NCBI GenBank assembly: GCA_038213805.1
Contig: JBBQSO010000002.1
Span: 32,001-96,000 of the forward strand
Source of the DNA: Planctomycetota bacterium
GTDB lineage: Bacteria > Planctomycetota > UBA11346
Length of the DNA: 64,000 bases
Direction of reading: 5' to 3'
This document shows, one piece after another, positions 145-37,762 of this stretch. The translations under genes and the position numbers were made by a program. Below the pieces are notes generated by a model. That model saw only the letters and a list, made by a program, of their open reading frames with translations, made no database searches and was not told the DNA's origin. How positions within the stretch are numbered: the first letter of the stretch is position 1; every line of letters begins with the position of its first letter.

Positions 145-395
145 GACGCGCATCGCACAGGCCTTCAACAGAGGTTTTCCGTTCCAGCATGACGGGGGTC
201 GTAGTGATCGTCTGCACCTGGAGACGGCGCAAACCGAAAAGCGGGTCGTGTCCTTGGCGCGGTGGCACGAACATGTCCGAGCTCGACTCGAGCGCCGGTC
301 CTGATCCGCCCGCCGACCGGGGGACGTCGATCCGAGAGTCCCGTGATGCGCGGCTCCCGCCTTCCCCTCGGCACAGCCGCTCCCATCATGGGCCC

Positions 396-1199
396 ATGCT
401 CGGCGCGATCCTCGGTGACATCATCGGTTCGGTCTACGAGGTGTCGCCGGTCAAGACCCGCGACTTCGCTCTGTTCACCGCGAATTCCGGATTCACCGAT
501 GACACCGTGCTGACCGTCGCGGTCGCCGACGCACTGATGAACGGCAGTGATCTGGTCGAAACCTTTCACGCCTACTTCGAGCGCTATCCGCGCGTCGGAT
601 GGGGACGGATCTTCGCGGCATGGGCAAAGGTGAAGGACCCTGATCCCTACAACTCCTGGGGCAACGGCGCCGCCATGCGCGTCAGCCCGGTGGCGTGGTT
701 CTGCCAGTCGCTGGACGAGGTCCTGGCGGTCGCGCAGCGCACCGCGGCAGTGACCCACAGCCACCCCGACGGCATCAGGTCGGCGCAGGCCGTGGCCGGT
801 GCCCTGTTCCTCGCCCGGACGGGTCGCAGCAAAGCGGAGATCCGTGCCTTCGCGGCGCGCACCGGCGGCTACGACCTCGACCGCACCCTGGCGGGCATCC
901 GGCCGACCTACAGCTTCCAGGTCGACGCGATCTCCTCCGTCCCCGAAGCGCTCATCGCCTTCCTCGAGGCGGATGGGGTCGAGGACGCGATCCGCAATGC
1001 GGTCAGCCTGGGCGGCGACGCCGACACCCAGGGCTGCATCGCCGGCGCCCTCGCAGAAGGCTTCCATGGCCCGGTGCCACAGGACCTCGCCCGCGAGGCG
1101 CTGTCCCGGCTGGACGACTTCCTGCGCGCACGGGTGATCGCGTTCTGCGCTCAGCATGTGCTACCGCGACAGCGGGGGGCGCCGCATGTCCCGGCCTGA
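396..1199 (+). CDS. ADP-ribosylglycohydrolase family protein (DraG/ARH-like)
   Basis: MLGAILGDIIG start, FTDDT, GNGAAMRVSP, THSHP and GGDADT motifs; start moved from 189 to ATG 396. Confidence 0.92.
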   Translation: MLGAILGDIIGSVYEVSPVKTRDFALFTANSGFTDDTVLTVAVADALMNGSDLVETFHAYFERYPRVGWGRIFAAWAKVKDPDPYNSWGNGAAMRVSPVAWFCQSLDEVLAVAQRTAAVTHSHPDGIRSAQAVAGALFLARTGRSKAEIRAFAARTGGYDLDRTLAGIRPTYSFQVDAISSVPEALIAFLEADGVEDAIRNAVSLGGDADTQGCIAGALAEGFHGPVPQDLAREALSRLDDFLRARVIAFCAQHVLPRQRGAPHVPA

Positions 1200-1686
1200 C
1201 CTCGCGACGCGTCGCCTCGAGGAACCCAGACGGAGGACCGCATCCATGATCGTCATCGTCATCGGCGCCGTGCTGCTGGTCATCGCCATCGCCCTGGGCG
1301 CGAGTTCGGCGCGCACCTTGTCACGCAGCGTCATCACCGTGGGCCACGTCACCAACCTGGTCTCCTCGCGGGGCAGCAAGGGCGGGACCGTCTACAAGAT
1401 CAATGCAACGTTCACCGACCAGCAGCAGCAGTCGCACACCTACCTCTCGTCCTTCTCGTCCTCATCGCCCGGCTACCGCGTCGGCGATCTGATCCGCATC
1501 TATTACGCCCCCGGCAATCCCGGTTCCTGCGGCATCGCCAGCTTTGGCTATTCGTTCGGTTTCGCGACCATTCTGGGCGCGACCGGACTGGCGGTTCTGC
1601 TGATGGGCGGCGCTTATCGGGTCGGTGACGACGTCATGGAGCGGTATTTCCCGGTGACCGCGGCGACGGCGGAACAATCCCGCTGA
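1186..1686 (+). CDS. DUF3592-like membrane protein
   Basis: TM helix, beta-rich soluble domain (GHV...GTVY...FTD...YRVGDLIRIYYAPGNP), second TM helix; start uncertain (1186 or about 1246). Confidence 0.65.
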   Translation: MSRPDLATRRLEEPRRRTASMIVIVIGAVLLVIAIALGASSARTLSRSVITVGHVTNLVSSRGSKGGTVYKINATFTDQQQQSHTYLSSFSSSSPGYRVGDLIRIYYAPGNPGSCGIASFGYSFGFATILGATGLAVLLMGGAYRVGDDVMERYFPVTAATAEQSR

Positions 1687-1704
1687 CACGGGTCGCCGAC
1701 TGGC

Positions 1705-2262
1705 TCAGGCCGCGTGCAGGATGCCCTCGCGGATGATCCGCTCCACCGCCTGCACATCGTCCAGGCCGATGAAGCCGATGCGGCGCATGGCGCCGCGACC
1801 CTGGTAGCGCTCCTCGAAGACCAGGTCGCCGGCGCCGCTTGCGCCGACGGTCTTGCGCATGCGCTGCAGCGTCGCGGCAGGATAGGACGAGATCTCGGCG
1901 CGCAGCACCCGCCACGCGATGCAGATCGCGCGCTGGTCGGTGACGACGTAGGCTGAACGCAACGCCGCGCGGCGGATCCACAACGGCGACGTGAACATGC
2001 CGATGCCGATCAGCACAAAGGGCAGGCCGAAGAGCGGGAAGAGGCTGAAAGGCCAGGGCGCGCCATGCTGGGTGGCGCCGGCGGCGGTGTACATCCAGAA
2101 GATCGCGAAGGCGGTCCACGGGATCGCGAAGAGCACCGGCACCACCCCCAGCATCATGGCGCGCCGCACGCTGGGACGACCGACCCACAGGATGCGCTCG
2201 CCGGGACGGACCTCGCGCTCGACGAGATCACGGGTCGCATGCGGCAGATCGGGGAGGTCCAT
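1705..2262 (-). CDS. Membrane protein with bacterial PH-like C-terminal domain
   Basis: GERILWVGRP, two TM helices, then YVVTDQRAI...GAGDLVF pattern; alternative start 2274. Confidence 0.65.
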   Translation of the reverse strand: MDLPDLPHATRDLVEREVRPGERILWVGRPSVRRAMMLGVVPVLFAIPWTAFAIFWMYTAAGATQHGAPWPFSLFPLFGLPFVLIGIGMFTSPLWIRRAALRSAYVVTDQRAICIAWRVLRAEISSYPAATLQRMRKTVGASGAGDLVFEERYQGRGAMRRIGFIGLDDVQAVERIIREGILHAA

Positions 2263-2557
2263 GCGCCTCGTCATACGGAGGAATGCAGCGGGGTGAAGGA
2301 GGACCGCTGCGGTGGTAGGATTGTTGGTACATGGCTCCGCACAGCGCTGCATCTTCCGATCTTCACAGCCTGAGCGCGCTATGCACGCATGCGGCCCAGT
2401 GGGCCGCGGTCCCAATCCTCACACCTCGTTCCACCACAGTCATCCGCTCGCCACCCGAAGCTCCAGCCGATGGTCGCGTCTCGCGCCTCATATACTCTTC
2501 CCTCCCTACCCCTCAATCCGTCTCACCGCCGCCGGATGGAGCGACCCCGCCAGCCCA

Positions 2558-2594
2558 CCGGCAATGGACGCAGCGCCCATTGCCGGGCTAGAGT
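2558..2594 (+). promoter_or_regulatory. Candidate operator (inverted repeat) plus -10 element upstream of nagB
   Basis: CCGGCAATGG-N9-CCATTGCCGG (2558-2586); TAGAGT (2589-2594) lies 6 nt before the ATG. Confidence 0.45.
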
Positions 2595-2600
2595 GATGCC

Positions 2601-4490
2601 ATGACCGCGACCCCGGGAACCACGCGCCTCATCTCCGCCGGCAGCGGCCCCGTCCGCCTCGCGCTGCGCCTGAGCAGCGATGCGGATGCCGCCGCCCGCC
2701 ACGTCGCCCAGCAGATCGCTGACACCATCCGCGCCTGCGCGCAGCGCCAGCGGCGCTGCGTGCTTGGTCTGCCGACCGGGCGCACGCCGCTGCCGTTCTA
2801 CCGCCATCTGGTCGATTGGCACCGCGCGGGGCAGCTGTCGTTCGCGCACGTGACGGTGTTCAATCTCGACGAATACCATCCGCTGCCGCGCTCCTCGCCG
2901 CAGAGCTACTGGACCTTCATGCATGAGGCGCTGTTCGCGCACGTCGACATCGCCGCCGACCAGGTCAACCTGCCGCGCGGCGACCTGCCCGAGGCGGAGA
3001 TGGCCGAGCACGCCGCGGCCTACGAGCGCGCCATCGCCGCGGCGGGCGGCCTCGACCTGGTGGTGCTGGGCATCGGCGGCAACGGTCACATCGCCTTCAA
3101 CGAACCGGGCGCGCCGGCCAGCGGCCGTACCCGCCTGGTGCGTCTGGCACCGGGCACGCGCCGCGCCGCGGCCGCAGACTTCGGAGGCGAGGAGCTGGTC
3201 CCCGCCAACGGCGTCACCATGGGCATCGCCACCATCCTCGCCGCGCAGCGCGTGCTGCTGCTCGCCACCGGCTCGGCCAAGGCCGTCGCCGTCGCTGCCG
3301 CGGTCGAAGGGCCGGTCGACACCATCTGCCCGGCGAGTTTCCTGCAGACCCATCGCGACGCCGAGGTGGTGTGCGATCCCGCTGCCGCTGCGCGCCTGGT
3401 CGCGCTGCGCAAACCGTGGCTGGCGGGACCGGTGGCCTGGGACGGCCAGCGCGCCCTGGCCGCCGCCATCGACGCGGCCGAGGCGGCGCGCAAACCGCTG
3501 CTTGGTCTGAGCGCGGAAGACTACCAGGCGCGCGCGCTCGGCGAACTGCTGGACGGCCATGGCCCGGCCGACCGCCTCAACCTCGAGGCCTTCCGCACCC
3601 TGCAGGGGCGCGTCACCGGCTGGCCGGGCGGCAAGCCCGCTGAGCGCCGCCGTCCCGGCGACATCCCGCAGCCCGACGATGGCATCCATCCCAAGACCGT
3701 GTTGGTGTTCAGCCCGCACCCGGACGACGACGTCATCGGCATGGGCGGCACCATCGCGCGCCTGGTCGAGCATGGCCATCATGTGCACATCGCCTACCAG
3801 ACCCCCGGCCACCGCGCGGTGCACGATGCCGACCTGCGCCGCCACCTGGCCTTCGTGGCGGGCGCCGCGCGCATCCTCGGCACGGCGCCGGGCGAGCCGA
3901 CGGCCGAGCACACCGCCTGCCTGAAAGCGCTGGTGCGCCGCACCGAGGCGCAGGCCGGCGCGGCGGTGGTTGGCGTGCCGGCCGAGCGCCTGCACTTCCT
4001 CGACAGTCCGCTCTACGCGCGCCGCAGCATCGGCGACGACGACCTCGCGGTGCATCAGCAGCTGCTCGACCGGCTGCGCCCGCACCAGATTTATGCGGCC
4101 GGCGACCTCGCCGACCCCAACGGTACGCACCGCCGCTGCCTGATCGCGCTGCGCGCCGCCTTGCGCGCGTGCGCCGGCGCGCCGTGGTGGGCGACCAGCA
4201 GCTGCTGGCTGTACCGCAGCGTCTGGGACGAATACGAACTCGACCAGGTCGACCGTCTGGTGCCGCTGTCGCCCGGCGACGTGCTGCGCAAGCGCCGCGC
4301 CGTGCTCGCCCACCAGTCGCAGCGCGACGGCGCACTGTTCCCCGGCGAGGACGCGCGCGAGTTCTGGCAGCGCGCCGAGGAGCGCAACGCCGGCCTGGCT
4401 GCCCGCCTCGACCGCCTCGGCCTGGCCCAGTACGCCGCGCTCGAGGCCTTCGTGCGCTGGCAGCCGCTGGAGGACGCGTGGCTGGCGTGA
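2601..4490 (+). CDS. nagB: Long-form glucosamine-6-phosphate deaminase fused to a C-terminal PIG-L/LmbE deacetylase-like domain
   Basis: LGLPTGRTP, FNLDEY and GIGGNGHIAFNEPG (NagB); FSPHPDDDVIGMGGT, AAGDLADPNGTH and HQSQRD (LmbE-like). Confidence 0.92.
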   Translation: MTATPGTTRLISAGSGPVRLALRLSSDADAAARHVAQQIADTIRACAQRQRRCVLGLPTGRTPLPFYRHLVDWHRAGQLSFAHVTVFNLDEYHPLPRSSPQSYWTFMHEALFAHVDIAADQVNLPRGDLPEAEMAEHAAAYERAIAAAGGLDLVVLGIGGNGHIAFNEPGAPASGRTRLVRLAPGTRRAAAADFGGEELVPANGVTMGIATILAAQRVLLLATGSAKAVAVAAAVEGPVDTICPASFLQTHRDAEVVCDPAAAARLVALRKPWLAGPVAWDGQRALAAAIDAAEAARKPLLGLSAEDYQARALGELLDGHGPADRLNLEAFRTLQGRVTGWPGGKPAERRRPGDIPQPDDGIHPKTVLVFSPHPDDDVIGMGGTIARLVEHGHHVHIAYQTPGHRAVHDADLRRHLAFVAGAARILGTAPGEPTAEHTACLKALVRRTEAQAGAAVVGVPAERLHFLDSPLYARRSIGDDDLAVHQQLLDRLRPHQIYAAGDLADPNGTHRRCLIALRAALRACAGAPWWATSSCWLYRSVWDEYELDQVDRLVPLSPGDVLRKRRAVLAHQSQRDGALFPGEDAREFWQRAEERNAGLAARLDRLGLAQYAALEAFVRWQPLEDAWLA

Positions 4491-4497
4491 GCGCGTC

Positions 4498-5298
4498 GTG
4501 AGCAGCACGGTGGCGGTGATCCTGGCGCGCGGCTTGGGCACGCGCATGCGCGCGCCCGGCGCCGCGCTCGATGCGCGCGCGGCCGCAATCGCCGACACCG
4601 GCGTCAAGGCGTTGATCCCGATCGGCCGGCCATTCCTCGACCACGTGCTGCACGACCTCGCCGAGGCCGGCGTGCGCGAGGCCGTGCTGGTGATCGGACC
4701 AGAGCACCACGATCTGCGCGCCTACTACAGTGCGCTGCCAACCACGCGCCTGCGCGTGACCTTCGCCGTCCAGCAGCAGCCGCGCGGGACGGCCGACGCG
4801 GTGCTGGCCGCAGAGGACGCGGTCGCCGGCCGCCCGTTCCTGGTGCTCAACAGCGACAACCTCTATCCGGCCGCGGCGCTGCGCCCACTCGCCGCGCTTG
4901 ACGGCCCCGGCCTGGTCGGCTTCCGGCGCTCCGGCCTGCTCGCCGGCAACATCCCGGCCGAGCGCATCGCGCGCTTCGCCGCGCTCAACACCGCCGCGGA
5001 CGGCACGCTCGCGCGCCTCGTCGAGAAGCCCGACCCCGCCGAACTCGCCGCCCTTGGCGCCGATCCGCTGCTGAGCATGAACTGCTGGGCCTTCGACGCG
5101 CGCATCTTCACCGCCTGCGCCGCCACCCCGCCCAGTCCGCGCGGTGAGCTCGAACTGCCCGACGCGGTGCTGCGCTCCATGGCTTCCGGCGTCAGCTACC
5201 GCGTCATCGAACGCGGCGAGGCGGTGCTCGACCTGTCGAGCCGCGACGACATCGCCGCGGTGCGCGCGGCCCTTGCGGGGCACGACGTCCGGCTGTGA
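4498..5298 (+). CDS. Sugar-1-phosphate nucleotidyltransferase (NTP_transferase family)
   Basis: ILARGLGTRMR, KALIPIGRPFL, PRGTADAV, NSDN, VEKP and SPRGELEL motifs (RmlA/GalU-like); GTG start. Confidence 0.85.
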   Translation: MSSTVAVILARGLGTRMRAPGAALDARAAAIADTGVKALIPIGRPFLDHVLHDLAEAGVREAVLVIGPEHHDLRAYYSALPTTRLRVTFAVQQQPRGTADAVLAAEDAVAGRPFLVLNSDNLYPAAALRPLAALDGPGLVGFRRSGLLAGNIPAERIARFAALNTAADGTLARLVEKPDPAELAALGADPLLSMNCWAFDARIFTACAATPPSPRGELELPDAVLRSMASGVSYRVIERGEAVLDLSSRDDIAAVRAALAGHDVRL

Positions 5299-5299
5299 A

Positions 5300-5772
5300 G
5301 CGCCAACGGCGCGCCTGATCCCAACCCAGGGCAATTCCCTACTCGTTACCCACAAGTCGTAGCACTCGGGCACTGCCTCTCTTGTCAGCCCAGTCCTGTC
5401 CGCAGCCCGCGGAGTGGGCGACACATCGTAGCCCAGGGCGTGAGCCCTGGGAACCTCGGTTAGAGAGGAGGATCGGAGCCCGCGGAGCGGGCAGCACAGG
5501 TCCTGCCACATCGAAATGCGGTGAATGCCGGGCGAGTCGTGATGATCCACGGACATCCCCAGATCGGATCCCAATGGTCGTGCATTACCGCTGAGTCTGC
5601 TGTGTCGCCCACTCCGTGGGCTGGCCCGCAGATACTCCGCGCGACCCAGAGCTGGGGCCCTGGGCTACGATGTGTCGCCCGCTCCGCGGGCTCTGAATGC
5701 CTGCGATCCGACTGATTTGCGAGCAATGAGTAGGGCGTTGCCCTGGGCTAGGATGGGTCGCGCCGTTGGTGC
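5300..5772. repeat. Triple-nested inverted-repeat (REP/REPIN- or MITE-like) element
   Basis: Outer arms about 5300-5347/5725-5772, middle arms 5404-5439/5657-5692 (1 mismatch in 36), inner arms 5477-5498/5601-5622. Confidence 0.85.
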
Positions 5773-5788
5773 CCGTGATCGTGGAAGC

Positions 5789-6577
5789 TCACTCCCCGGT
5801 CGCGCTGCGCGCCTTGCTCGGCGGCGCCCCGTGAGCGCGCTTCCACGCCCGCGCGAAGGTGTCGGCGCTGGGGAAACCGCAGCGCTCCGCGACGGTGGCG
5901 ACGCTCAGCCCGTTCTTGAGCAGGCCCTCGGCCAGCCACAGGCGCGCGGTGGCGATGGCGCCCTTGGGCGGCACGCCGTAGCCCTCAGCGAAGATGCGGT
6001 AGGCCTGCGCACGCGACAGGCCGCTGGCGCGCACCAGGTCCTCGACCGCGACGCCGCGGTGCAGGTTGGACCACAGCCGCGCGATCATGCGCTGCAGCGC
6101 GGGATTGGCGAAGGGCAGGTCGTCGACGGACTCGCCGAGCACCTGGCGCACCAGTTCGATGAAGCCGCTGCGCCGGCTGGCGTCGTCGGGTGCGGCGAGC
6201 GCGGATTCCATCAGGCGGCGGCTGGGTTGGCTGGGCAGGCGGCCGCGCCACTCGCGGTCCTGGTCGCCGATCAGGACGTCGCTGCAGGTCGGCAGGAAGC
6301 CCTGGCCGAACCAGATGCTGCCACGGCGCAGGGACTCGTGGCGATGCCAGATGCCCGGGCCGATGAGCAGCCCCTGACCGGGCTGAAGATCCATGGTGCG
6401 CCCGGGCGAGACGATGCGCACCACCCCTTCGAGGCACACCACCGAGGTCGGCGTGGCGTGCAGGTGCCCGTCGCCGGTCAGCGGCGGCGGCGGGCCGTCC
6501 TGCCACACCTCGACCCGCGACAACTTCCCGGGAAGGTCGTCGATGAGCCTCCACCAGTGCCTGAAGGTCGGGTCCAT
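5789..6577 (-). CDS. AraC family transcriptional regulator with N-terminal cupin domain
   Basis: HLH...E...WHRH cupin residues; C-terminal double HTH ending VATVAERCGFPSADTFARAWKRAHGAPP; divergent from the kinase gene. Confidence 0.9.
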   Translation of the reverse strand: MDPTFRHWWRLIDDLPGKLSRVEVWQDGPPPPLTGDGHLHATPTSVVCLEGVVRIVSPGRTMDLQPGQGLLIGPGIWHRHESLRRGSIWFGQGFLPTCSDVLIGDQDREWRGRLPSQPSRRLMESALAAPDDASRRSGFIELVRQVLGESVDDLPFANPALQRMIARLWSNLHRGVAVEDLVRASGLSRAQAYRIFAEGYGVPPKGAIATARLWLAEGLLKNGLSVATVAERCGFPSADTFARAWKRAHGAPPSKARSATGE

Positions 6578-6715
6578 GGTAACCTGCAATATGTCTCATA
6601 CATGCCGGACTTACAACCGTTGATATCCAGCCTCGGCCGGGAAGACGCTGTGCGAGCGCCGTAGAACCTCCCGCATGCGACTCCCGACCACGCCTCCATC
6701 CCGCTCCCGCCAGCC

Positions 6716-8014
6716 ATGATCGCCACCGCCACCGATCTCGCGCTGGTGCGCCCGCTCGGCCTGAGCGATGAGCGCGCAGGCCAGGCCGCCGCGCTGTTCG
6801 TCCAGGCGCGCCACCAACTCGGTGCCGAACCGGCCTGGGTGTGGTGGGTGCCCGGCCGCATCGAGGTGCTGGGCAAGCACACCGACTACGCCGGCGGCCA
6901 GGTGCTGAACTGCGCCGCGGACGTCGGCCTGCTGGTGGTCGCGCGACCGCGCAGCGACGCCGTGGTGCGCGTGCGCAGTCAGGGCCACGAGGTCGCCATC
7001 CCGTTGGTCGCCGGTGCCCAGGGCGCCCCGGGCATGGCCACCTATGTTGCCGCGGTGGCGCGGCGCTTGGCCCGCCACTTCCCAGGCGTGGAGCGCGGCG
7101 TGGACATCGGCATCGCCGCCAACCTGCCGGCGGCCTCGGGCATGAGCTCATCCTCGGCGCTGGTCATCGCCGTGCACCTCGGGGTGGCCGCGGCCAACCT
7201 CCTTGAGTCGCGCGCGGACTTCTGCGCCGCGCTGGGCCGCGACCACGAACTGGTCCCCTACCTGGGCTGCCACGAGAGCGGCGCTGGCTGCGCCGGCTTC
7301 CCAGGCGAAGCCGGGGTCGGCACCAGCGGTGGCTCGCAGGACCATGCCGCCATCCTGCTGTCGCGCGCCGGCCGGCTGAACCAGTGGTCGTTCGCGCCCT
7401 TCCACCGCCTGGGCACGGTGGCCTGGCCCGCACATCTGGAGCTGGCCGTCGCGGTCAGCGGCGTTCTGGCCGAGAAGAGCGCCGCCGCGCGCACCGCCTT
7501 CAACGAGGTCGCCGGGCGCGCGCGCGCCGCGGCCGCCGCGTGGAATGCCGTCACGGGGCGCAGCGACGCCTCGCTGGGCGCGGCCTTCCTGGCCTGCGGC
7601 GCACCAGCGGTGCTGGCGGCGATCGCCGACCCCGACCTGCGCCAGCGCGCCGAACAGGTCGCCATCGAAACCATCGAGATCGTGCCTGGTGCCATCGCCG
7701 CGCTCGCTGCTGGCGACGCCGCGGCGTTCGGCGCGCTCGCGGCGCGCTCGCAGGCCATGGCGGTCACCCACCTGCGCAACCAGATCGCGGAAACGCGGGC
7801 CCTGGCCGATGGCGCGGCGGCGCACGGGGCGCTGGCGGCCTCCGCCTTCGGCGCCGGCTTCGGCGGTGCAGTGTGGGCCGCGTTCCCGCGCGGCAGCGAC
7901 GGCGCGACCGCGTGGCTGGCCGAGTACCGCCGGCGCTTCCCGCAGCACGCCGCGGTCGCGGCGCTGCAGCGCATCGCACCCGGACCGGGCGTCACCGCCC
8001 TGGAGCCGGCATGA
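6716..8014 (+). CDS. GHMP-family sugar kinase (galactokinase-like, atypical sugar motif)
   Basis: PGRIEVLGKHTDY, PAASGMSSSSA, GGSQDH and GAGFGG motifs. Confidence 0.85.
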   Translation: MIATATDLALVRPLGLSDERAGQAAALFVQARHQLGAEPAWVWWVPGRIEVLGKHTDYAGGQVLNCAADVGLLVVARPRSDAVVRVRSQGHEVAIPLVAGAQGAPGMATYVAAVARRLARHFPGVERGVDIGIAANLPAASGMSSSSALVIAVHLGVAAANLLESRADFCAALGRDHELVPYLGCHESGAGCAGFPGEAGVGTSGGSQDHAAILLSRAGRLNQWSFAPFHRLGTVAWPAHLELAVAVSGVLAEKSAAARTAFNEVAGRARAAAAAWNAVTGRSDASLGAAFLACGAPAVLAAIADPDLRQRAEQVAIETIEIVPGAIAALAAGDAAAFGALAARSQAMAVTHLRNQIAETRALADGAAAHGALAASAFGAGFGGAVWAAFPRGSDGATAWLAEYRRRFPQHAAVAALQRIAPGPGVTALEPA

Positions 8015-8655
8015 GTGGCCGTGGCGCGCCCACACTCGACCTGCCGCTGCGGCGCCGGCCCGGCCCGCGCGGCGCCACGCGGGTGCGCCTGCGTGCGCTG
8101 CCCGGCGCGCGCGCCGCCCCGGAGACCAGCGTGGCGCTGCAGGCCGATGCTGCAGGGCTGACGCTGCGCTTCGCCTGCCGCGCGCGGGTGCTCACCGCGC
8201 GCATGGTCAATGACGGCGATCCGCTCTATCTTGAGGACGTCGTCGAGGTCTTCCTGTGGCCGGGCGGCGATCCCGCAGTGTATTTGGAATATGAGGTCTC
8301 ACCGCTCGGTCGCGACCTGTGCCTGTTGTGCTGCCAGCAGGGCGGACGGCGCAGCGCCTGGCGGCCGTGGGGCGTGGCGGCGGCGGCCAAGCCGAGCTGC
8401 CAGGTCACCGTCCGCGGCGGCGCGCAGCACCACGGCGCGGCGGTGCGCGGCTGGGACGCCGAATTGCGCATCCCCTTCGCCGCGCTCGCCGGCATCGCGC
8501 CAACGCCGGTGCCCGGCACGCGCTGGCGCGCCAACTTCTACCGCATCGACCATGCCAGCGGTGGCCCGCGCCACCTCGCGTGGTCGCCGCCGCCACATCC
8601 CGACTTCCATCATCTCGACTCCTTCGCTACCATCGTCTTTACGGAGCAGCCATGA
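8011..8655 (+). CDS. Carbohydrate-binding family 9-like protein
   Basis: LYLEDVVEVFL, YLEYEVSPLG, WDAELRIPF, WRANFYRID and WSP...DFH motifs; ATGA overlap with the upstream gene. Confidence 0.8.
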   Translation: MSGRGAPTLDLPLRRRPGPRGATRVRLRALPGARAAPETSVALQADAAGLTLRFACRARVLTARMVNDGDPLYLEDVVEVFLWPGGDPAVYLEYEVSPLGRDLCLLCCQQGGRRSAWRPWGVAAAAKPSCQVTVRGGAQHHGAAVRGWDAELRIPFAALAGIAPTPVPGTRWRANFYRIDHASGGPRHLAWSPPPHPDFHHLDSFATIVFTEQP

Positions 8656-10289
8656 TCCTGCGCCTCCTGCTCTTCACTTGCGCCGCCATGACCAGCTCCG
8701 TTGCCACCAGCGCGGAAGCTCCCGGTCTCATCCCGCGCCCGGTGCACCTGACGCCCGGTGACGGCCCCACCATGCCGCTCACCGCGACCACCGCGCTGCA
8801 CGCGGCTGGCGCGGCAGCCGCGGTCGCGACCTGGCTGCGCGACGAACTGGCGCGCAGCGGTGCCGCCATCGCCGCACCGGACGCCGGCGACGGCCAGGAC
8901 GGCATCACCCTGCGCCTCGATCCCGGCTTGGCCGCGGTGGGACCGGATTGGGCCCAGGCGGAGACCTACCGACTGACCATCGACGCCGGACACGCCACGC
9001 TGACCGCGCGCGCGCCGGAAGGCCTGTTCCGCGGCGCAACCACGCTGGTCCAGCTCGCAGAGCAGACCGGCGCCGGCTGGCGCCTGCCGGCGCTCGCCAT
9101 CGACGACCAGCCGCGCTTCCGCTGGCGCGGGCTGATGCTCGACTGTGGCCGGCACTTCTTCACCGTGGCCGAGGTCGAGCGCTTCATCGACCTGCTCGCG
9201 CTGCACAAGCTCAACCGCTTCCATTGGCACCTCACCGAGGACCAGGGCTGGCGCATCGAGGTGAAGTCCGCGCCGCGCCTGACCAGCGTCGGCGCGTGGC
9301 GCGCATCGTCACCGGTGATGGGCGACGCGGGCAAGGCCGACGGCCAGCCCTACGGCGGCTTCTACACCCAGGACGACATCCGCCACGTGGTCGCGCACGC
9401 CGCCGCGCGCTTCGTCACGGTGGTGCCCGAGCTGGAGATGCCCGGCCACGGCTGCGCCGCCATCGCCGCCTACCCCGAGCTGGGCAACCGCGACGTCCCC
9501 GGCTGGCAGGATCCGCAGGTCGGCACGCACTGGGGCGTGTTCCACCACACCTTGGCTCCGCGCGAGGAGACCTTCGCCTTCATCGCCAAGGTCTTCGATG
9601 AGATCCTGCCGCTGTTCCCCGGCGCCTACGTGCACATCGGCGGCGACGAGGCGCCCAAGGACGAGTGGCAGCACTCGCCCTTCGCCCAACAGGTCATCGC
9701 CGAACACGACCTGAAGGACGCGCACGGCCTGCAGGCGTGGTTCATCAAGCGTGTCGAGGGCCTGCTCACCGCGCGCGGCAAGCGCCTGATCGGCTGGGAT
9801 GAGATCCAGGAGGGCGGCCTGTCCCCGACCGCGACCATGATGGTGTGGCGCGACTGGAAGTGGGCGAAGCTCGCGCTGGCGGCCGGCAACGCGGTGGTGA
9901 TGGCGCCGACCAGCCACACCTACTTCGACTACGCCCAGAGCGGCACGCCGCGCGCGCTGGACACCCAGCGCGTCTTCACCCTCGAACCGGTCCCCGACGG
10001 CACTCCCGCGACTCAGGTCGCGCAGGTGCTCGGCGCGCAGGGCCAGGTGTGGACCGAATCCATCGGATCGGCGGACAAGGTCGAGTACATGACGTGGCCG
10101 CGCGCCTGCGCCCTCGCCGAAGTCTGCTGGTCGCCGGCGGAGGGGCGCGATTGGACGGACTTCCAGGCGCGCCTGACGCGGCATCTGGCGCTCCTCGACC
10201 GTGATCAGGTCAACTACCGCAAGGACGATGGCGCGCCGGCGCGCTCCAGCGAGGCGATGGCGGCCACCCCGCATCCGCCGCTGCCATGA
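8652..10289 (+). CDS. Beta-N-acetylhexosaminidase (GH20), signal peptide
   Basis: PRFRWRGLMLDCGRHF, FHWHLTEDQGWR, EMPGH, HIGGDE catalytic pair, YFDY, WTE and PR motifs. Confidence 0.95.
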   Translation: MILRLLLFTCAAMTSSVATSAEAPGLIPRPVHLTPGDGPTMPLTATTALHAAGAAAAVATWLRDELARSGAAIAAPDAGDGQDGITLRLDPGLAAVGPDWAQAETYRLTIDAGHATLTARAPEGLFRGATTLVQLAEQTGAGWRLPALAIDDQPRFRWRGLMLDCGRHFFTVAEVERFIDLLALHKLNRFHWHLTEDQGWRIEVKSAPRLTSVGAWRASSPVMGDAGKADGQPYGGFYTQDDIRHVVAHAAARFVTVVPELEMPGHGCAAIAAYPELGNRDVPGWQDPQVGTHWGVFHHTLAPREETFAFIAKVFDEILPLFPGAYVHIGGDEAPKDEWQHSPFAQQVIAEHDLKDAHGLQAWFIKRVEGLLTARGKRLIGWDEIQEGGLSPTATMMVWRDWKWAKLALAAGNAVVMAPTSHTYFDYAQSGTPRALDTQRVFTLEPVPDGTPATQVAQVLGAQGQVWTESIGSADKVEYMTWPRACALAEVCWSPAEGRDWTDFQARLTRHLALLDRDQVNYRKDDGAPARSSEAMAATPHPPLP

Positions 10290-11902
10290 CGCCCGCCCGC
10301 TACCGCGTCCTGCTTTTGACCATGGCTGGCCTGGGCGGCGCGCTCTACGGCTACGACCTCGGCATCATCGGTGCCGCGCTGCTCTATCTCGACCGCAGCA
10401 TCGCGCTCAGCGACCAGCAGACCTCGCTGATCGTCGCGGCGGTGCTCGCCGGGGGCACGGTGTCGTCGGTGGCCGCCGGCGTCCTCGCCGACCTGTTCGG
10501 GCGGCGCACCATCGCCGTGCTCAGCGCGCTGCTGTTCCTGGTCAGCGTCGCGCTGATCAGCACCGCCAGCGGCTTCCTGCCGCTGCTCGGTGGCCGCCTG
10601 CTGCAGGGGCTGTCCGCCGGCATGATCGCGGTGGTCATCCCGCTCTACCTCGCCGAGTGCCTGCCGGCCGCGGTGCGCGGGCGCGGCACCGCCGCCTTCC
10701 AGCTCGCCCTGACCGTCGGCATCATGGCGGCGATGGCGGTCGGCCACGGCTTCGCCACGCACGTCGCCGCGGTCGAGCGCCTCGGCGACGCCGCGGCGCT
10801 GGCCGCGACGCGCGATCACGCCTGGCGGCTGATGTTCGCCACCGCGGCGCTGCCCGGTCTGCTGTTCCTGGCCGGCGCGATGCTCATCGCCGAGTCGCCG
10901 CGCTGGCTGCAGCGCCGCGGGCGCGGCGCTGCAGCGCGCGCCGCGCTCGCACGCGCCCTGCCAAGCGACGAAGCCGACGCCGAATTCGCGCGCATGGCCG
11001 CGGATGCGCCCTCGGCAGCCGCGCCGCAGGGCACGCTGTGGCAGCGCCGCTACCTGCTGCCCTTCGCACTGGCCTGCGCCATCCTCGCGCTCAACCAGGC
11101 GACCGGCATCAACTCGCTGCTGCAGTACGTGGTGGTGATCATGACCCAGGCCGGTCTGGGCGAGGCCGACGCCGCCGGCGCCGGCCTGGCGGTGAGCGTG
11201 GTCAATGTGCTGTTCACGGTGGTCGCGCTGGTGCTGGTCGATCGCAAGGGCCGCACCTTCCTGCTCAAGCTCGGCACCGCCGGCATCGTCGTCGCGCTGC
11301 TGCTGTGCGCCTTCGTCTTCAACCGCTTCGAATCCGCGGCCACCGACGTGACTGAACGCGTGCGCGCCCAGGTCGGCGTGACCGGCCTGCGTCTGCCCGT
11401 CGCGGCGGTGGACGGCGTGGCGACGCGCCTGACCGTGGTCTACGACGCCGGCGGCGGCGCCCGGCTGGCCAGCGTCGGTTCGGACGCAGCCGATCCGGTG
11501 CTGGTGCTGGCGGCGCCCAAGGACGCCGCGCTGACCATCATCCGCGCGCGCAGCGGCCCACAGCCCGGGACCGCGACCGGCTGGACGGCGATGGGCTGCC
11601 TGATGCTGTTCGTCGCCGCCTTCGCGGTCGGCCCCGGCGTCTGCGTGTGGCTGGCGCTCTCGGAGCTGATGCCCAACCGCATCCGCGCAACCGGCATGGG
11701 CATCGCGCTGCTGCTCAACCAGGGCGTCGCCACCGGTATCGCCGCAGTGTTCCTGCCGGTCGTCGGCGCCTATGGCTACGCCGCGATGTTCCTGGCCTGG
11801 GCCGCCGCCACGGTGGTCTACTTCCTGCTCGCCGCCTTCGTCCTGCCCGAGACCAAGGGCCGCCCGCTTGAGGACATCGAGCGCGGCTTCGCCAAGCACT
11901 GA
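10286..11902 (+). CDS. Sugar porter family MFS transporter
   Basis: LYGYDLG, DLFGRR, ESPRWL, NQATGIN, VDRKGR and PETKG signatures. Confidence 0.93.
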   Translation: MTPARYRVLLLTMAGLGGALYGYDLGIIGAALLYLDRSIALSDQQTSLIVAAVLAGGTVSSVAAGVLADLFGRRTIAVLSALLFLVSVALISTASGFLPLLGGRLLQGLSAGMIAVVIPLYLAECLPAAVRGRGTAAFQLALTVGIMAAMAVGHGFATHVAAVERLGDAAALAATRDHAWRLMFATAALPGLLFLAGAMLIAESPRWLQRRGRGAAARAALARALPSDEADAEFARMAADAPSAAAPQGTLWQRRYLLPFALACAILALNQATGINSLLQYVVVIMTQAGLGEADAAGAGLAVSVVNVLFTVVALVLVDRKGRTFLLKLGTAGIVVALLLCAFVFNRFESAATDVTERVRAQVGVTGLRLPVAAVDGVATRLTVVYDAGGGARLASVGSDAADPVLVLAAPKDAALTIIRARSGPQPGTATGWTAMGCLMLFVAAFAVGPGVCVWLALSELMPNRIRATGMGIALLLNQGVATGIAAVFLPVVGAYGYAAMFLAWAAATVVYFLLAAFVLPETKGRPLEDIERGFAKH

Positions 11903-11923
11903 CCAGCCCCCGGAGACCGATCC

Positions 11924-13381
11924 ATGCAACCCACCCGCCGCGACCTGCTCAAGACCTCGACCCTCGCCGGGCTCGGCGCGTCCATCATGGCGGCGACCGG
12001 CTGCGGCACGGCCGGGGCCGGAGTGCGCGCCCCCGCCGACACCGCGACCACGACCGCGGGCGGCATCGTGCTGCCGGCGGGGCTGGGTGCGACGCGGCCG
12101 CGGCCCGCAGGGCAGCAGCCGGTGCACGCGCTGACCACCAAGCCGCTCGACAAGGTGCGCATCGCCGCGATCGGCTGCGGCGGCCGCGGCTCAAGCCTGA
12201 TGCAGGACTGCCTGGGCATCGAGTTCGCCGAACTGGTCGCGGTCTGCGATCTGCGCCTGGAGCGCGCCACGGCCATGGCCGAGCGCGTCGCCAAGGCCGG
12301 GCGCCCGAAACCCGCGGTGATCGGCGGCAGCGAGGACGCCTGGGAGGCGCTGTGCGCGCGCGACGACATCGACGTCATCTACATCGCCACGCCATGGCAC
12401 TGGCACGCGCCGATGGCCCTGCGCGCCATGGAGCATGGCAAGCACGCCTTCGTCGAGGTCGCAGCGACGGTCACCGTCGCGGACTGCTGGCGCCTGGTCG
12501 ACGCCAGCGAGCGCAACCAGCGCCACTGCGTGATGCTTGAAAACTGCTGCTATGGCGAGAACGAGTTGTTCGTGCTCAACCTGGTGCGCCAGGGCGTGCT
12601 TGGCGAGCTCAATCACGCCGAGTGCGGCTACATCCACGATCTGCGCGGACTGCTCTTCGACCTCGGCGGCGAAGGCGGCTGGCGACGCGAGTTCCACCGC
12701 GAATACGACGGCAACCTCTACCCGACCCACGGCCTGGGGCCGGTGGCGCAGTACCTGGGCATCAACCGCGGCGACCGCTTCGCGCACCTGGTCTCGATGT
12801 CCTCGCCGCAGCGCGGCCTGGGCGCGTGGCGCGCTGCCCACCACCCCAACGGTGGTCAGCAGGACGGCGAGACCTACGTGTGCGGCGACATGAACACCAC
12901 GATGGTCAAGACCGCGCTCGGCCGCACCATCATGGTGCAGCACGACGTGATCAGCCCGCGGCCCTACAGCCGCATCAACGCCTTGTCGGGCACCGGCGGG
13001 ACCTTCTTCGACTACCCGGCGCGCCTGGCCCTCAATGATCCCAAGGCGCACGGGCTGGCATCCGAAGGCTCGCACGCCTGGCTGTCCGACCAGGACCTGG
13101 CGACGATGCGCGCGAAATACACCCACCCGCTGTGGCGCCGGCTGCAGGACCGTGCGAAAGACAGTGGCCACGGCGGCATGGACTTCGTGATGAACTGGCG
13201 CCACCTCGACTGCATCCGCAGCGGCCAGACCCCCGACAGCGTGGTCTACGATGCAGCAGCGTGGAGCAGCCTGATCGAATTGACATCGTGGTCGGTGGCG
13301 AACGGCAGCATGCCCATCACGGTCCCCGATTTCACACGCGGGCTGTGGCAGGGGCTGCAGCCGTTGGGGATCGTGGTGTGA
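11924..13381 (+). CDS. Gfo/Idh/MocA oxidoreductase, probable GH109 NAD-dependent alpha-N-acetylgalactosaminidase; Tat/lipoprotein signal
   Basis: TRRDLLK Tat motif, ATGC lipobox-like, IGCGGRG, ATPWHWH, MLENCCY, YPTHGLGPVAQ and GHGGMD. Confidence 0.88.
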   Translation: MQPTRRDLLKTSTLAGLGASIMAATGCGTAGAGVRAPADTATTTAGGIVLPAGLGATRPRPAGQQPVHALTTKPLDKVRIAAIGCGGRGSSLMQDCLGIEFAELVAVCDLRLERATAMAERVAKAGRPKPAVIGGSEDAWEALCARDDIDVIYIATPWHWHAPMALRAMEHGKHAFVEVAATVTVADCWRLVDASERNQRHCVMLENCCYGENELFVLNLVRQGVLGELNHAECGYIHDLRGLLFDLGGEGGWRREFHREYDGNLYPTHGLGPVAQYLGINRGDRFAHLVSMSSPQRGLGAWRAAHHPNGGQQDGETYVCGDMNTTMVKTALGRTIMVQHDVISPRPYSRINALSGTGGTFFDYPARLALNDPKAHGLASEGSHAWLSDQDLATMRAKYTHPLWRRLQDRAKDSGHGGMDFVMNWRHLDCIRSGQTPDSVVYDAAAWSSLIELTSWSVANGSMPITVPDFTRGLWQGLQPLGIVV

Positions 13382-13391
13382 GGGAAATGCG

Positions 13392-13461
13392 TGGCTGATG
13401 GCTGATGGCTGATGGCTGATGGCTGATGGCTGATGGCTGATGGCTGATGGCTGATGGCTGA
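13392..13461. repeat. Perfect heptamer tandem repeat (TGGCTGA)x10
   Basis: Counted directly; followed by CAGCCA, complementary to TGGCTG; lies between convergent genes. Confidence 0.97.
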
Positions 13462-13584
13462 CAGCCAACCGAACGCTGCGGTCACCGTTGGCACGGCGGC
13501 AGAAAACAGTGCACGAGCACTGCGTGCGCAGGCTTGATGTGACACCTGGGCGCGTGGTCGACGACGTCGGACGTCGGACCGCTC

Positions 13585-13983
13585 TCAGGCGACGGGATTG
13601 GCTTCGCTGACCGACTGCGCCTTCTTGATCAGCACCGAGATCGCGGTGAGGATCTGGTCCTTCGAGTACGGCTTGGCCAGGTAGTCGCTGCAGCCGACGG
13701 CGCGGCACTTCTCGTCTTCGCCCTTCATGGCGTTGGCGGTCAGCGCGATCACCGGCAGGCCCTTGAGTTTGGGATTGGCGCGGATCGCCTTGGTGGCGTC
13801 GTAGCCGTTCATCACCGGCATCATCATGTCCATGAGCACCAGCTTGAAGTGCGCGCGGTCGAGGCGTTCCAGAGCGATGGCGCCGTTGTCCGCGACCTCA
13901 TAGGTATAGCCGGCCCGTTGCAGCAGAAACGCGATCAGTTTCTGGTTCACCGGATTGTCTTCGACGATGAGGATATCGGGCAT
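13585..13983 (-). CDS. Single-domain response regulator (CheY/DivK-like)
   Basis: ILIVEDN, LMDMMMPVMNG, ALTANA and YLAKP; GGAG SD upstream of ATG 13983. Confidence 0.92.
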   Translation of the reverse strand: MPDILIVEDNPVNQKLIAFLLQRAGYTYEVADNGAIALERLDRAHFKLVLMDMMMPVMNGYDATKAIRANPKLKGLPVIALTANAMKGEDEKCRAVGCSDYLAKPYSKDQILTAISVLIKKAQSVSEANPVA

Positions 13984-14075
13984 GTGGCCCACTCCGGAGG
14001 ATGGTCCTGGAAGCATACCAGGAAACGGCTTGCGAAGCAATGTCACGATCATGGCCCGGTCCGGCCACGCAACGC

Positions 14076-15164
14076 CTAACCACCAAGGGAGGGCCCGGGC
14101 GCGAAGGGCGCAAGCCCATGGCTGCTTTGCCGGCCGGTGATCAGACCAGTCACGATTTCCGCGGTAACCGGCGTCAGCAGCACACCGTTACGGAAATGTC
14201 CGGTGGCCAGGACCAGGCCCGGCCGGACGCGGCCAAGGGCGGGCAGCCCACTGGCCAGGCGCGGGCGCAGACCGGTCCACCGCTCGAGAATCGCGGCCCC
14301 GGCCAACGCAGGCAGCAGGCGTCGGGCCCCCGCCGCCAGGGCCTCAATCGCCGCCGGGTCATCGCGGCGGTCGAAGCCGGCGCTGACCATGGTCGCCCCC
14401 ACCACCACGCCCTGGCCACGGCGCGGCACCAGGTAGGCGTGATGGCTGTGCACGAAGTGGCGCAGCAGGTCATCCGGGGCCTCCAGGCGCAGCATCTGGC
14501 CTTTCACCGGTTCACCCGGCAGGTCGAGTCCGGTCAGGCGCGCCAGTTCCGGAGTCCACGCGCCGCTGGCCAGTACCAGCTCATCCGCCGCCAGCCGGGT
14601 GCCGTCGCCAATCACCACCCGGCCCGGCTCCAGCCCGGCCACCGCGCAGCCGTAGCGCACCGCCACCCCGGCCGCGGCGCAGGCCCGCACCAGGGCGGCA
14701 GTGACCAGCCGCGGATTGACCTGGGCGGCGGGCAGCAGCAGCGCGGCGTCCGCGGCCAAGGCCGGCTCGCAGCTGGCCAGGGCGGCCCGGTCGAGCCACC
14801 CGACCGCGACGCCCTGGTCCGCAAGGAACGCTGCGCGCGCCTCTGCCGCGGCCACGTCGGCCGGCCCGCACAGCGGCAGCAGCCCGCCATCAGCGCGGAA
14901 ATCGAGCGCCGCCGGATCACCCTCCGTCAGTGCGCGCGCGAAGCCATCCCACAGCGCCAAGCTGCCCACGCCCAGGCGCCACAACGGTCCGGCGGCGTCG
15001 GCCTCGTGGTGCGGCGCGAGCATGCCGGCGGCCGCCCAGCTCGCCTCGCGCGCCTCAGGCGCGGCGTCCAGCACCTGTACCGCGCAGCCCGCCTGCGCCA
15101 GCCGCCACGCGCAGGCCAGTCCGATGACGCCGCCACCGACGATGATGACGCGCGCGCCGCTCAC
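14076..15164 (-). CDS. thiO: Glycine oxidase ThiO / FAD-dependent oxidoreductase
   Basis: IVGGGVIG, ASWAAAGML, PVKGQM, YLVPR, GLRP and GHFRNGVLLTP; GTG start overlaps the mlaE stop. Confidence 0.85.
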   Translation of the reverse strand: MSGARVIIVGGGVIGLACAWRLAQAGCAVQVLDAAPEAREASWAAAGMLAPHHEADAAGPLWRLGVGSLALWDGFARALTEGDPAALDFRADGGLLPLCGPADVAAAEARAAFLADQGVAVGWLDRAALASCEPALAADAALLLPAAQVNPRLVTAALVRACAAAGVAVRYGCAVAGLEPGRVVIGDGTRLAADELVLASGAWTPELARLTGLDLPGEPVKGQMLRLEAPDDLLRHFVHSHHAYLVPRRGQGVVVGATMVSAGFDRRDDPAAIEALAAGARRLLPALAGAAILERWTGLRPRLASGLPALGRVRPGLVLATGHFRNGVLLTPVTAEIVTGLITGRQSSHGLAPFAPGPSLGG

Positions 15165-16003: not shown

Positions 16004-16106
16004 GCCCGGGTTGTAGACCCGGCCGGGCGCGAGTCCATGAACCCCGGCCAGGCCATGAGCGGGATTGCACGCTTGTGGAGGACCCCGCGCCGCGCTAAGC
16101 CCCGCC

Positions 16107-17360: not shown

Positions 17361-17364
17361 GGCG

Positions 17365-19278
<1,914 letters not shown>

Positions 19279-32028: not shown

Positions 32029-32082
32029 GCCGTACATTCGCCAGCGGCGTCGACGGTCAATCCCTGCTTCGAATGTGCATGA

Positions 32083-37240: not shown

Positions 37241-37254
37241 TCCCTTCGTGGCGG

Positions 37255-37719: not shown

Positions 37720-37762
37720 TCTCATTTCCCCCTTCCCCGTCCCCGCTCTCCACCGGACGCCC

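Follow-up and report, generated by a model that had tools for sequence, protein, structure and literature searches.

What becomes of N-acetylhexosamines (HexNAc) where a glycan-foraging gene cluster includes neither the deacetylase NagA nor the kinase NagK? This question is raised by a gene cluster at positions 2601-13381 of a 64,000-nt stretch of DNA from a Planctomycetota bacterium (assembly GCA_038213805.1, contig JBBQSO010000002.1, positions 32,001 to 96,000), the whole of which is referred to below as the window. The cluster encodes two glycosidases of families GH20 and GH109, a sugar porter, a kinase of the galactokinase family (GHMP superfamily), a sugar-1-phosphate nucleotidyltransferase, a long NagB protein and a regulator of the AraC type. 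An earlier note on this DNA, made from the sequence alone, proposed that HexNAc is phosphorylated at C1 and converted to a nucleoside diphosphate (NDP) sugar along a Leloir-like route, with the long NagB handling deacetylation and deamination.

In this work we have analyzed the cluster and its relatives computationally. The kinase and the nucleotidyltransferase were found to be encoded side by side in many distantly related genomes, and together they constitute a module which matches no curated family. Whether the locus as a whole serves the foraging and salvage of amino sugars under AraC control stands, in our judgement, at about even chances.

Organization of the gene cluster

The G+C content of the window is approximately 70%, which gives rise to many spurious open reading frames (ORFs); genes were therefore called by the GC content of third codon positions and annotated by Pfam and NCBIfam scans. 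All eight genes that the earlier note had listed at 2601-13381 were recovered, together with a repeat-rich spacer:

2601-4490, plus strand: long NagB, a NagB-LmbE fusion (Glucosamine_iso and PIG-L domains) of 629 aa, by Pfam and NCBIfam NF002557
4498-5298, plus strand: sugar-1-phosphate nucleotidyltransferase (NTP_transferase) of 266 aa, by Pfam
5299-5788, no strand assigned: repeat-rich spacer with nested inverted repeats and two copies of the Acido-Lenti-1 RNA motif, by repeat search and Rfam
5789-6589, minus strand: AraC-type regulator (cupin sensor and HTH_18), by Pfam and third-position GC
6716-8014, plus strand: GHMP sugar kinase of the galactokinase family, 432 aa, by Pfam
8011-8655, plus strand: small protein of the CBM9_2 family, 214 aa, by Pfam (E=4.8e-10)
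8652-10289, plus strand: GH20 beta-N-acetylhexosaminidase, predicted to be exported, by Pfam and PDB match
10286-11902, plus strand: transporter of the MFS sugar-porter family, 538 aa, by Pfam and TIGR00879
11924-13381, plus strand: GH109 glycosidase of the NAD-dependent N-acetylgalactosaminidase type with a twin-arginine leader, by Pfam and PDB match

The transferase start lies 7 nt downstream of the NagB-LmbE stop. Overlaps of 4 nt join the kinase and CBM9 genes (8011-8014), the CBM9 and GH20 genes (ATGA at 8652) and the GH20 and MFS genes (10286-10289), and because all three are of the ATGA type, the stretch from the kinase to the GH109 gene looks like a single operon of five genes. The start of the GH20 gene had to be corrected: the GTG at 8319 opens an upstream extension, and the true start is the ATG at 8652. 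Scanning of 2300-13800 for promoters and terminators was uninformative (no promoters, and four terminator-like sites against 2.3 expected). An ORF on the plus strand at 5672-6664 was rejected as a gene, having no Pfam match and the wrong codon-position pattern of GC.

The AraC-type regulator (HTH_18, 3.3e-16; Cupin_2, 7.8e-05; third-position GC of 0.93 on the minus strand) had been described as divergent, which is right with respect to the kinase operon, from which it is separated by a gap of 126 nt; it is placed, however, in the middle of the cluster, and towards the transferase gene it is convergent. Its other flank is formed by the spacer, in which two pairs of inverted repeat arms are nested, 5300-5358 with 5714-5772 (78% complementary) and 5404-5451 with 5645-5692 (90%). 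The inner arms coincide with matches to Acido-Lenti-1 (Rfam RF01687), scoring 44.5 bits against a gathering threshold of 37 at 5404-5451 (minus strand) and 24 bits at 5645-5692 (plus strand), and the folding z-score of the single-stranded spacer (5299-5788) is -10.4 relative to shuffled sequences. One possibility is that the spacer is a small mobile or repetitive element acquired along with the AraC gene. A likewise divergent AraC gene, with a product 78% identical, stands beside the kinase gene of locus L001, whose kinase is the closest relative found in a genome (65% identity). Third-position GC is about 0.5-0.6 in that locus against 0.9 in the window, so close relatives of these proteins occur in genomes that differ widely in base composition.

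The kinase and the nucleotidyltransferase

Three Pfam domains are present in the kinase, all above cutoff: GalKase_gal_bdg (46.7 bits), GHMP_kinases_N (32.1) and GHMP_kinases_C (23.7). The curated galactokinase models are far from being reached (NF003705, 84 bits against a cutoff of 385; TIGR00131, 79.4 against 226.65), and in profile comparison the kinase family lies roughly as far from galactokinase (6tep, 1.6e-30) as from GALK2, the human kinase of N-acetylgalactosamine (GalNAc; 2a2c, 7.8e-29). At least 97% of 86 kinase sequences retain R48, K54-H55-T56-D57-Y58 and D209, and the columns of R48 and D209 align with the GRVN...GGMDQ motifs of both structures. The protein combines the GHMP fold and the galactokinase signature with R48 and D209, which we take to be the catalytic Arg and Asp of galactokinase-type enzymes; the earlier proposal of a C1 kinase is thereby upheld as a prediction. 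The signature reads G-K-H-T-D-Y in place of the G-E-H-x-D-Y of galactokinases. K54 is invariant in all 16 sequences of our kinase alignment A1, and its conservation among the loci described below is partly built in, since these were retrieved by signature motifs.

At E<=1e-30 the family counts 388 representatives, one for each cluster formed at 50% identity; its members come predominantly from Gemmatimonadota, Acidobacteriota and Planctomycetota, where they are annotated as 'galactokinase'. In a quick maximum-likelihood tree, from which three rows with internal stops had been dropped, the window kinase and that of L001 occupy a long branch of their own (length 1.22, support 100), apart from the other 76 sequences. 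Only two near-invariant differences, S63V and Y262F, set the window subclade apart from the main clade. Position 262 is Tyr in 99% of the main clade and Phe in nine of the ten members of the window subclade, and its column aligns to Phe in 2a2c, a small and weak hint that the window kinase may handle an N-acetylated and/or differently configured sugar.

The nucleotidyltransferase belongs to the NTP_transferase superfamily (PF00483; 6.8e-17, 62.3 bits against 21.2) and reaches no NCBIfam cutoff, the best scores being those of AglF (95.7 against 400) and of the archaeal GlmU N-terminal domain (88 against 292). The motifs L9-A10-R11-G12-L13-G14, R16-M17-R18 and E176-K177-P178 are invariant in eight of eight sequences and the columns N118, D120-N121 and Y123-P124 are conserved, so that both superfamily motifs, G-x-G-[TK]-R and E-K-P, accompany the domain; their roles are presumably those known for sugar-1-phosphate nucleotidyltransferases. 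In profile comparison the family is nearest to GalU/YngB uridylyltransferases (6.7e-16), to RmlA and to the dual sugar-1-phosphate transferase of Sulfolobus (5z09, 1.1e-13), for which reason UTP or dTTP is the most likely nucleotide substrate. In the genomes of relatives the transferase is left unnamed by annotation.

Conservation of the kinase-transferase pair

Alignment A1 led to 542 confirmed kinase relatives in one-genome-per-species contigs, and the best 80 were taken with up to 10 kb of flanking DNA. According to record titles and tree labels, about 40 of these loci belong to Gemmatimonadota, 18 to Acidobacteriota, 13 to Planctomycetota, three to Actinomycetota (Brachybacterium and two Buchananella), three to Chloroflexota and one to Latescibacterota, and two are unplaced. 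Neighbours were counted by tblastn with the window proteins and locus-derived representatives as queries. As flanks of 3.5 kb or more to either side of the kinase are available in just 62 of the 80 loci, the following numbers of loci (out of 80) are lower bounds:

Transferase: 67 in the fetched DNA, 65 within 3.5 kb of the kinase
SSF symporter: 42 in the fetched DNA, 40 within 3.5 kb
GH109: 20 in the fetched DNA, 19 within 3.5 kb
Exported protein of about 700 aa with a twin-arginine translocation (TAT) leader: 19 in the fetched DNA, 17 within 3.5 kb
GH20: 7 in the fetched DNA, 3 within 3.5 kb
GH35 beta-galactosidase: 6 in the fetched DNA, 4 within 3.5 kb
GlmM-type mutase: 5 in the fetched DNA, 4 within 3.5 kb
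Stand-alone PIG-L: 4 in the fetched DNA, 0 within 3.5 kb
NagB-LmbE: 2 in the fetched DNA, 1 within 3.5 kb
Epimerase: 2 in the fetched DNA, 2 within 3.5 kb
CBM9: 1 in the fetched DNA, 1 within 3.5 kb
AraC: 1 in the fetched DNA, 1 within 3.5 kb
MFS porter: 0 in the fetched DNA, 0 within 3.5 kb

Neighbourhood conservation, which the earlier note had named as a check, thus speaks for the kinase and the transferase: the two are adjacent in 65 of the 80 loci, which were drawn from at least six phyla, with cases in Gemmatimonadota, Acidobacteriota, Planctomycetota, Actinomycetota and others. This adjacency supports a functional pair and argues for a conserved module of predicted sugar-1-kinase and NDP-sugar-forming enzyme. 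In 62 loci the transferase gene is directly upstream, its stop codon a median of 70 nt away from the first kinase residue that could be aligned, and in three it follows the kinase; the transferases of the 67 loci are 42-58% identical to that of the window, apart from the outlier L050 with 30%, and share its motifs. Full-text literature searches found no paper on the module. Where the transferase is upstream (62 loci), it is never fused to the kinase, an apparent ORF of 764 aa in L056 being in a different frame from the transferase match.

The commonest further partner is the SSF symporter, whose nearest solved relative is the sodium/sugar transporter of Vibrio (2xq2, 2.7e-25). Its gene directly precedes that of the transferase in 26 loci, and in seven of them, all from Gemmatimonadota (L010, L014, L018, L049, L052, L068 and L078), the two are fused into a single ORF of 872-890 aa (in L010, ORF 7284-9863, 859 aa from the first listed start). 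Such a fusion of a symporter with a cytoplasmic nucleotidyltransferase is unusual. The protein of about 700 aa is encoded in each of these seven loci as well. This protein and GH109, whose homologues (38-55% identity) adjoin the kinase in 19 loci, are mutually exclusive, being present in 19 and 20 loci, respectively, with none in common, as if they were alternatives for one job. The protein (for example L022:5104-7200, and in 18 other loci) has a TAT leader and a conserved FLFDDGWD motif. Pfam and NCBIfam yielded TAT-signal matches only, a single-sequence PDB search gave nothing, and a profile search gave weak matches to alpha-galactosidases (0.037 and 0.24); in the Atlas it looks like alpha-galactosidases/Melibiase and bears the automatic name 'enterotoxin family protein'. 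We treat its assignment as a putative alpha-galactosidase-like glycosidase as a lead only. Taken together, the neighbours suggest a recurrent unit of uptake system, anomeric kinase and sugar-1-phosphate nucleotidyltransferase, often accompanied by an exported enzyme that would release an alpha-linked galacto-configured sugar.

Genes for sugar-phosphate interconversion adjoin the module in a few cases. Four Acidobacteriota loci (L023, L024, L031 and L043) carry two tandem paralogues of archaeal-type phosphoglucosamine mutase after the kinase (in L024, at 4248-7580, TIGR03990 scores of 493 and 457 bits, both above the cutoff of 439), and in three of the four a GH20 gene comes next. A gene of the NAD-dependent epimerase family, which no NCBIfam model names, follows the kinase in two loci (L045 and L061).

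In the window the pair is split, and one has to ask whether two independent units, NagB-LmbE with the transferase on one side and the AraC-regulated kinase-CBM9-GH20-MFS-GH109 operon on the other, merely lie next to each other with no pathway in common. The opposite-strand AraC gene and the spacer between them would agree with this, as would L001, which keeps AraC and kinase without transferase, NagB, GH20 or GH109 within 10 kb, and the frequent occurrence of NagB-LmbE as a stand-alone gene. Against it, the window transferase is of the same kind (42-58% identity, 30% for the outlier) as those encoded directly beside the kinase in 62 loci, and in L013, a metagenome-assembled genome of Phycisphaerales, the genes for NagB-LmbE, transferase, kinase and a CBM9_2 protein are contiguous and in the order of the window. 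The shared order suggests that the window arrangement is an operon of the L013 type interrupted by the AraC gene and the repeat element; one such split is the simplest history, and we consider two unconnected units distinctly unlikely.

The similarity of the transferase to MurU raises another possibility, namely a cell-wall recycling bypass analogous to AmgK-MurU, in which C1 phosphorylation of N-acetylmuramic acid (MurNAc) or N-acetylglucosamine (GlcNAc) would lead to UDP-MurNAc or UDP-GlcNAc for peptidoglycan. The resemblance to MurU models (E of about 1e-5) and to the MurU structure 4y7t (8.9e-7) is weak; the models match the N-terminal 120 residues or so, with scores near 25 bits against cutoffs of 250-370 (NF045697, 25.2 against 370; NF045761, 25.5 against 250). 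Genes for LysM and M23 peptidase proteins do occur near the kinase in L020 and L080, and the signature Lys could bind the lactyl carboxylate. What usually accompanies the pair, however, are genes for uptake and for exported enzymes of the GH109 or alpha-galactosidase-like kind rather than genes for muropeptide processing, and AmgK has a different fold (APH family). We hold this explanation to be very improbable.

The long NagB protein

The protein consists of an N-terminal glucosamine-6-phosphate deaminase domain (Glucosamine_iso, 6.5e-28), a conserved linker and a C-terminal deacetylase domain of the LmbE/PIG-L type (PIG-L, 5.6e-16), and is a full-length member of NF002557 (702.9 bits against a cutoff of 384; residues 22-622 on profile positions 31-652 of 653). 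Its NagB domain passes the nagB equivalog TIGR00502 (244.1 against 236.9) and matches NagB of Escherichia coli (1cd5) at 2e-54; the C-terminus weakly matches diacetylchitobiose deacetylases (about 3e-6). Invariant in 12 of 12 homologues are NLDEY (88-92), G159, G162, H163 and FNEPG (166-170) in the first domain, and SPHPDDD (371-377), D505, P506, GTHR (508-511, including H510), H571 and Q574 in the second. The second set contains the zinc-binding H-x-D-D motif and a downstream His of the LmbE/PIG-L family; SPHPDDD, H510 and H571 are presumably metal ligands, and the roles of the remaining motifs in both domains are likewise taken by us from the families. Since the motifs of both domains are invariant, both halves look catalytically competent.

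The fusion is no peculiarity of this locus. It belongs to an already annotated family of identical architecture (NF002557/PRK02122, 'glucosamine-6-phosphate deaminase-like protein') and is very common, with 7764 matches among 8000 candidates scored, many of them named from Planctomycetota. The function of its C-terminal LmbE domain appears uncharacterised, and full-text literature searches found no paper on the fusion; for a Flavobacterium chitin locus it is reported that the predicted NagB could not be expressed (PMC5127042). The long NagB is not among the constant genes of the kinase-transferase module, as it lies near the pair in one of the 80 loci and within the fetched DNA in two; the place that the earlier note gave it in the pathway is thus not supported. 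The nearest protein relatives (P0001 at 91%, P0002 at 86% and P0121 at 92%) belong to metagenome or viral contigs, and three kinase hits agree with three NagB-LmbE hits in the length of their longest contig (8348, 12552 and 14237), an indirect hint that the two genes may share contigs there.

Glycosidases, CBM9 protein and transporter

The GH20 enzyme has both the catalytic domain (Glyco_hydro_20, 7.8e-109, 364.6 bits) and domain 2 (Glyco_hydro_20b, 1.8e-18, 67.9 bits) of its family, and its top PDB match is the beta-N-acetylhexosaminidase 7cbn (2.7e-141). In GH109 the C-terminal domain (Glyco_hydro_109_C, 1.1e-51, 175.2 bits against a cutoff of 27) is combined with the Rossmann NAD domain (GFO_IDH_MocA, 1.2e-12), and the protein resembles characterised enzymes: 6t2b (GH109 protein 2) at 3.3e-118 and 2ixa (alpha-N-acetylgalactosaminidase of Elizabethkingia) at 9.3e-67. 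That both glycosidases are exported, as the earlier note had it, is probable from leaders judged by eye, a hydrophobic Sec-like one in GH20 (from 8652, MILRLLLFTCAAMTSSVATSAEA) and an RRDLLK twin-arginine motif in GH109.

The CBM9 protein has no obvious signal peptide and gives Atlas feature matches of 0.97 to stand-alone CBM9_2 clusters. The CBM9_2 gene that follows the kinase in L013 encodes a protein just 20% identical to it (E=3e-5). The transporter is a sugar porter by Pfam (Sugar_tr, 1.3e-79) and by TIGR00879 (255.7 against a cutoff of 237.8); no homologue of it was detected in the 80 related loci, which have SSF symporters instead.

Proposed pathway and identity of the sugar

We propose that the exported GH20 and the TAT-exported GH109 would act outside the cytoplasm and cleave beta- and alpha-linked GlcNAc/GalNAc off glycans, that the MFS porter would import the monosaccharide and that the GHMP kinase would phosphorylate it at C1. 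The dedicated transferase could then turn HexNAc-1-phosphate into NDP-HexNAc, most likely with UTP or dTTP. As to the direction of flux, the product might feed envelope biosynthesis directly, or enter catabolism after epimerisation and mutase steps encoded elsewhere. The long NagB, presumably co-transcribed with the transferase, would provide LmbE deacetylase and NagB glucosamine-6-phosphate deaminase activities for the catabolic branch.

The absence of canonical salvage genes stated earlier holds for the entire 64-kb window. In Pfam scans of 17 ORFs at 189-19278 and of the 35 genes called at 19514-63907, no gene for a NagA-type deacetylase, a ROK kinase, the phosphotransferase system (PTS) or the tagatose pathway came to light, the sole Amidohydro_1 match being urease alpha; there is accordingly no canonical NagK/NagA/NagB or Aga locus (a NagA-type amidohydrolase with a 6-kinase or PTS) in the window. 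The claim of a pathway without NagA or NagK applies to this stretch and no further. The Leloir-like route is unsupported, for the same scans found neither a GalE-type epimerase nor a phosphohexomutase interconverting 1- and 6-phosphates, and such a route would require both to reach central metabolism.

The HexNAc substrate assumed in the earlier note stands in part. Every flanking catabolic gene in the window (GH20, GH109 and the NagB domain of NagB-LmbE) is HexNAc-specific, and amino-sugar links recur elsewhere, with GH109 as the commonest glycosidase neighbour (19 of 80 loci) and GlmM-type mutases and GH20 in Acidobacteriota; other loci offer GH35, alpha-galactosidase-like proteins and PL2. 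HexNAc as the substrate of the pair at this locus is the most economical assumption and our best guess. Activation of another galacto-configured sugar (galactose, galacturonate or N-acetylhexosaminuronate), with HexNAc genes nearby only because the glycans are mixed, is in our view somewhat unlikely. It would fit the galactokinase signature domain of the kinase and the kinship of the SSF partner, nearest to sodium/galactose-glucose transporters. The signature Glu of galactokinases contacts the C6 hydroxyl of the sugar, and a Lys in its place might pair with a carboxylate at C6; the exchange of Glu for Lys in GKHTDY would therefore also suit a sugar acid, judging from galactokinase structures. 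The galactokinase models of NCBIfam, far below cutoff, and the GalNAc-kinase-like Phe at position 262 argue the other way, as do the amino-sugar links just given.

Besides the Glu-to-Lys exchange, several observations weigh against a locus for amino-sugar salvage as drawn here. In the Phycisphaerales locus L026 the start of the transferase gene is overlapped by a co-oriented gene for a PL2 pectate lyase (7300-9042; Pectate_lyase_2, E=7e-132), and the kinase is followed by a pectate-lyase-like protein; the PL2 gene points to uronic-acid glycans as the target of some members of the module. The neighbours are heterogeneous in general, with GH35 near the kinase in four loci, the alpha-galactosidase-like exported protein in 17, a heparinase-like protein in L011 and an altronate/galactarate dehydratase in L045; the genes that give the window its character are rare near the pair (NagB-LmbE in one locus, GH20 in three, CBM9 in one, MFS in none). 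The separate long branch of the window kinase and L001 means that inference from the main clade may not transfer to them, and L001 has AraC and kinase with no transferase within 10 kb. In the window itself the pair is split by the AraC gene and about 490 nt of spacer, and epimerase and phosphohexomutase are missing. The sample is biased towards this kinase subfamily by the retrieval patterns (GKHTDY[AG]G and AASAFGAGF) and by the choice of the best 80 of 542 relatives. The literature searched held no biochemical data for any member of the module.

A bolder reading, to which we give a small chance only, is that a symporter or MFS porter, the transferase and the GHMP kinase make up a widespread uncharacterised pathway by which scavenged galacto- or gluco-configured amino sugars would be converted directly to UDP-sugars and which, joined by the long NagB, would permit catabolism independent of NagA and NagK. 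HexNAc would be phosphorylated to HexNAc-1-phosphate by the GHMP kinase and deacetylated to hexosamine-1-phosphate by the LmbE domain; a GlmM-type mutase, such as those paired beside the module in Acidobacteriota, would yield hexosamine-6-phosphate, and the NagB domain fructose-6-phosphate. The known relatives of the LmbE domain all act on GlcNAc substituted at C1 in the alpha configuration.

Gemmatimonadota, Acidobacteriota and Planctomycetota are abundant in soil and water, and their carbohydrate metabolism is mostly deduced from annotation. Should the pair turn scavenged amino sugars straight into nucleotide sugars, models of envelope building and of the recycling of microbial and host glycans in these phyla would change, and their frequent GH109-like genes would be explained. 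Chemo-enzymatic synthesis of nucleotide sugars would gain new anomeric kinase/pyrophosphorylase pairs, and the LmbE half of a protein very commonly annotated as 'NagB' would receive its first testable role.

Other features of the window

Elsewhere in the window there are genes for urease, for ABC transporters of urea and of sugars, for two-component systems and for housekeeping functions. Upstream of the cluster lie an ADP-ribosylglycohydrolase gene (189-1199) and, just before the cluster, genes for a DUF3592 protein (1156-1686, plus strand) and for a predicted membrane protein of 236 aa (1705-2415, minus strand) which gave no family match. Three successive paralogous HEAT-repeat proteins of 454, 548 and 551 aa are encoded at 26965-32037 (minus strand). 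In the urea uptake and urease cluster (35789-48627) the gamma and beta subunits of urease are fused in a single ORF (43001-43954), and an acyltransferase_3 gene (46659-47849) is located between ureF and ureG.

Comparison with known systems

The logic of an anomeric kinase followed by a pyrophosphorylase is known from GALK2-AGX1, NahK, AmgK-MurU, Fkp and the plant salvage enzymes. For the present pairing of a GHMP kinase with an RmlA-like transferase, the fusions with symporters and the alternating glycosidase partners there is neither a curated model nor a paper in the literature searched.

Eukaryotic GALK2 with AGX1/UAP1 is similar in that a C1 kinase of the galactokinase GHMP family precedes an NDP-sugar pyrophosphorylase, and the profile of the kinase family matches GALK2 (7.8e-29 to 2a2c), with a GALK2-like Phe at position 262 of the window kinase. 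AGX1, however, belongs to the UDPGP family, whereas the window transferase is a short RmlA/GalU-type PF00483 protein; the signature Glu is replaced by Lys in the kinase, and the bacterial genes stand in an operon with transporters and exported glycosidases.

The galacto-N-biose/lacto-N-biose (GNB/LNB) pathway of Bifidobacterium (NahK/LnpB, GalT-type LnpC and GalE-type LnpD) follows a Leloir-like HexNAc logic, in which HexNAc-1-phosphate is converted to UDP-HexNAc, epimerised and then passed to the NagA/NagB amino-sugar route. NahK has the APH and not the GHMP fold, and the pathway employs a transferase of the uridylyl-exchange type and a GH112 phosphorylase; Pfam scans of the window found no GH112, GalT or GalE gene. 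In the AmgK-MurU system of Pseudomonas and Tannerella an anomeric amino-sugar kinase and a small NTP_transferase likewise convert a scavenged sugar to a UDP-sugar, and Tannerella uses a MurNAc transporter of the SSS family. The window transferase falls short of the MurU models, the kinase fold differs, and the context is glycan foraging, not muropeptide recycling.

Plant GalAK and arabinokinase with UDP-sugar pyrophosphorylase, and Fkp of Bacteroides, also combine a GHMP anomeric kinase with a pyrophosphorylase for monosaccharide salvage. Fkp, a single fused protein, demonstrates that bacteria use this salvage logic. The sugars of those systems differ, and in the module described here it is the symporter, not the kinase (0 of 62 loci), that is found fused to the transferase.

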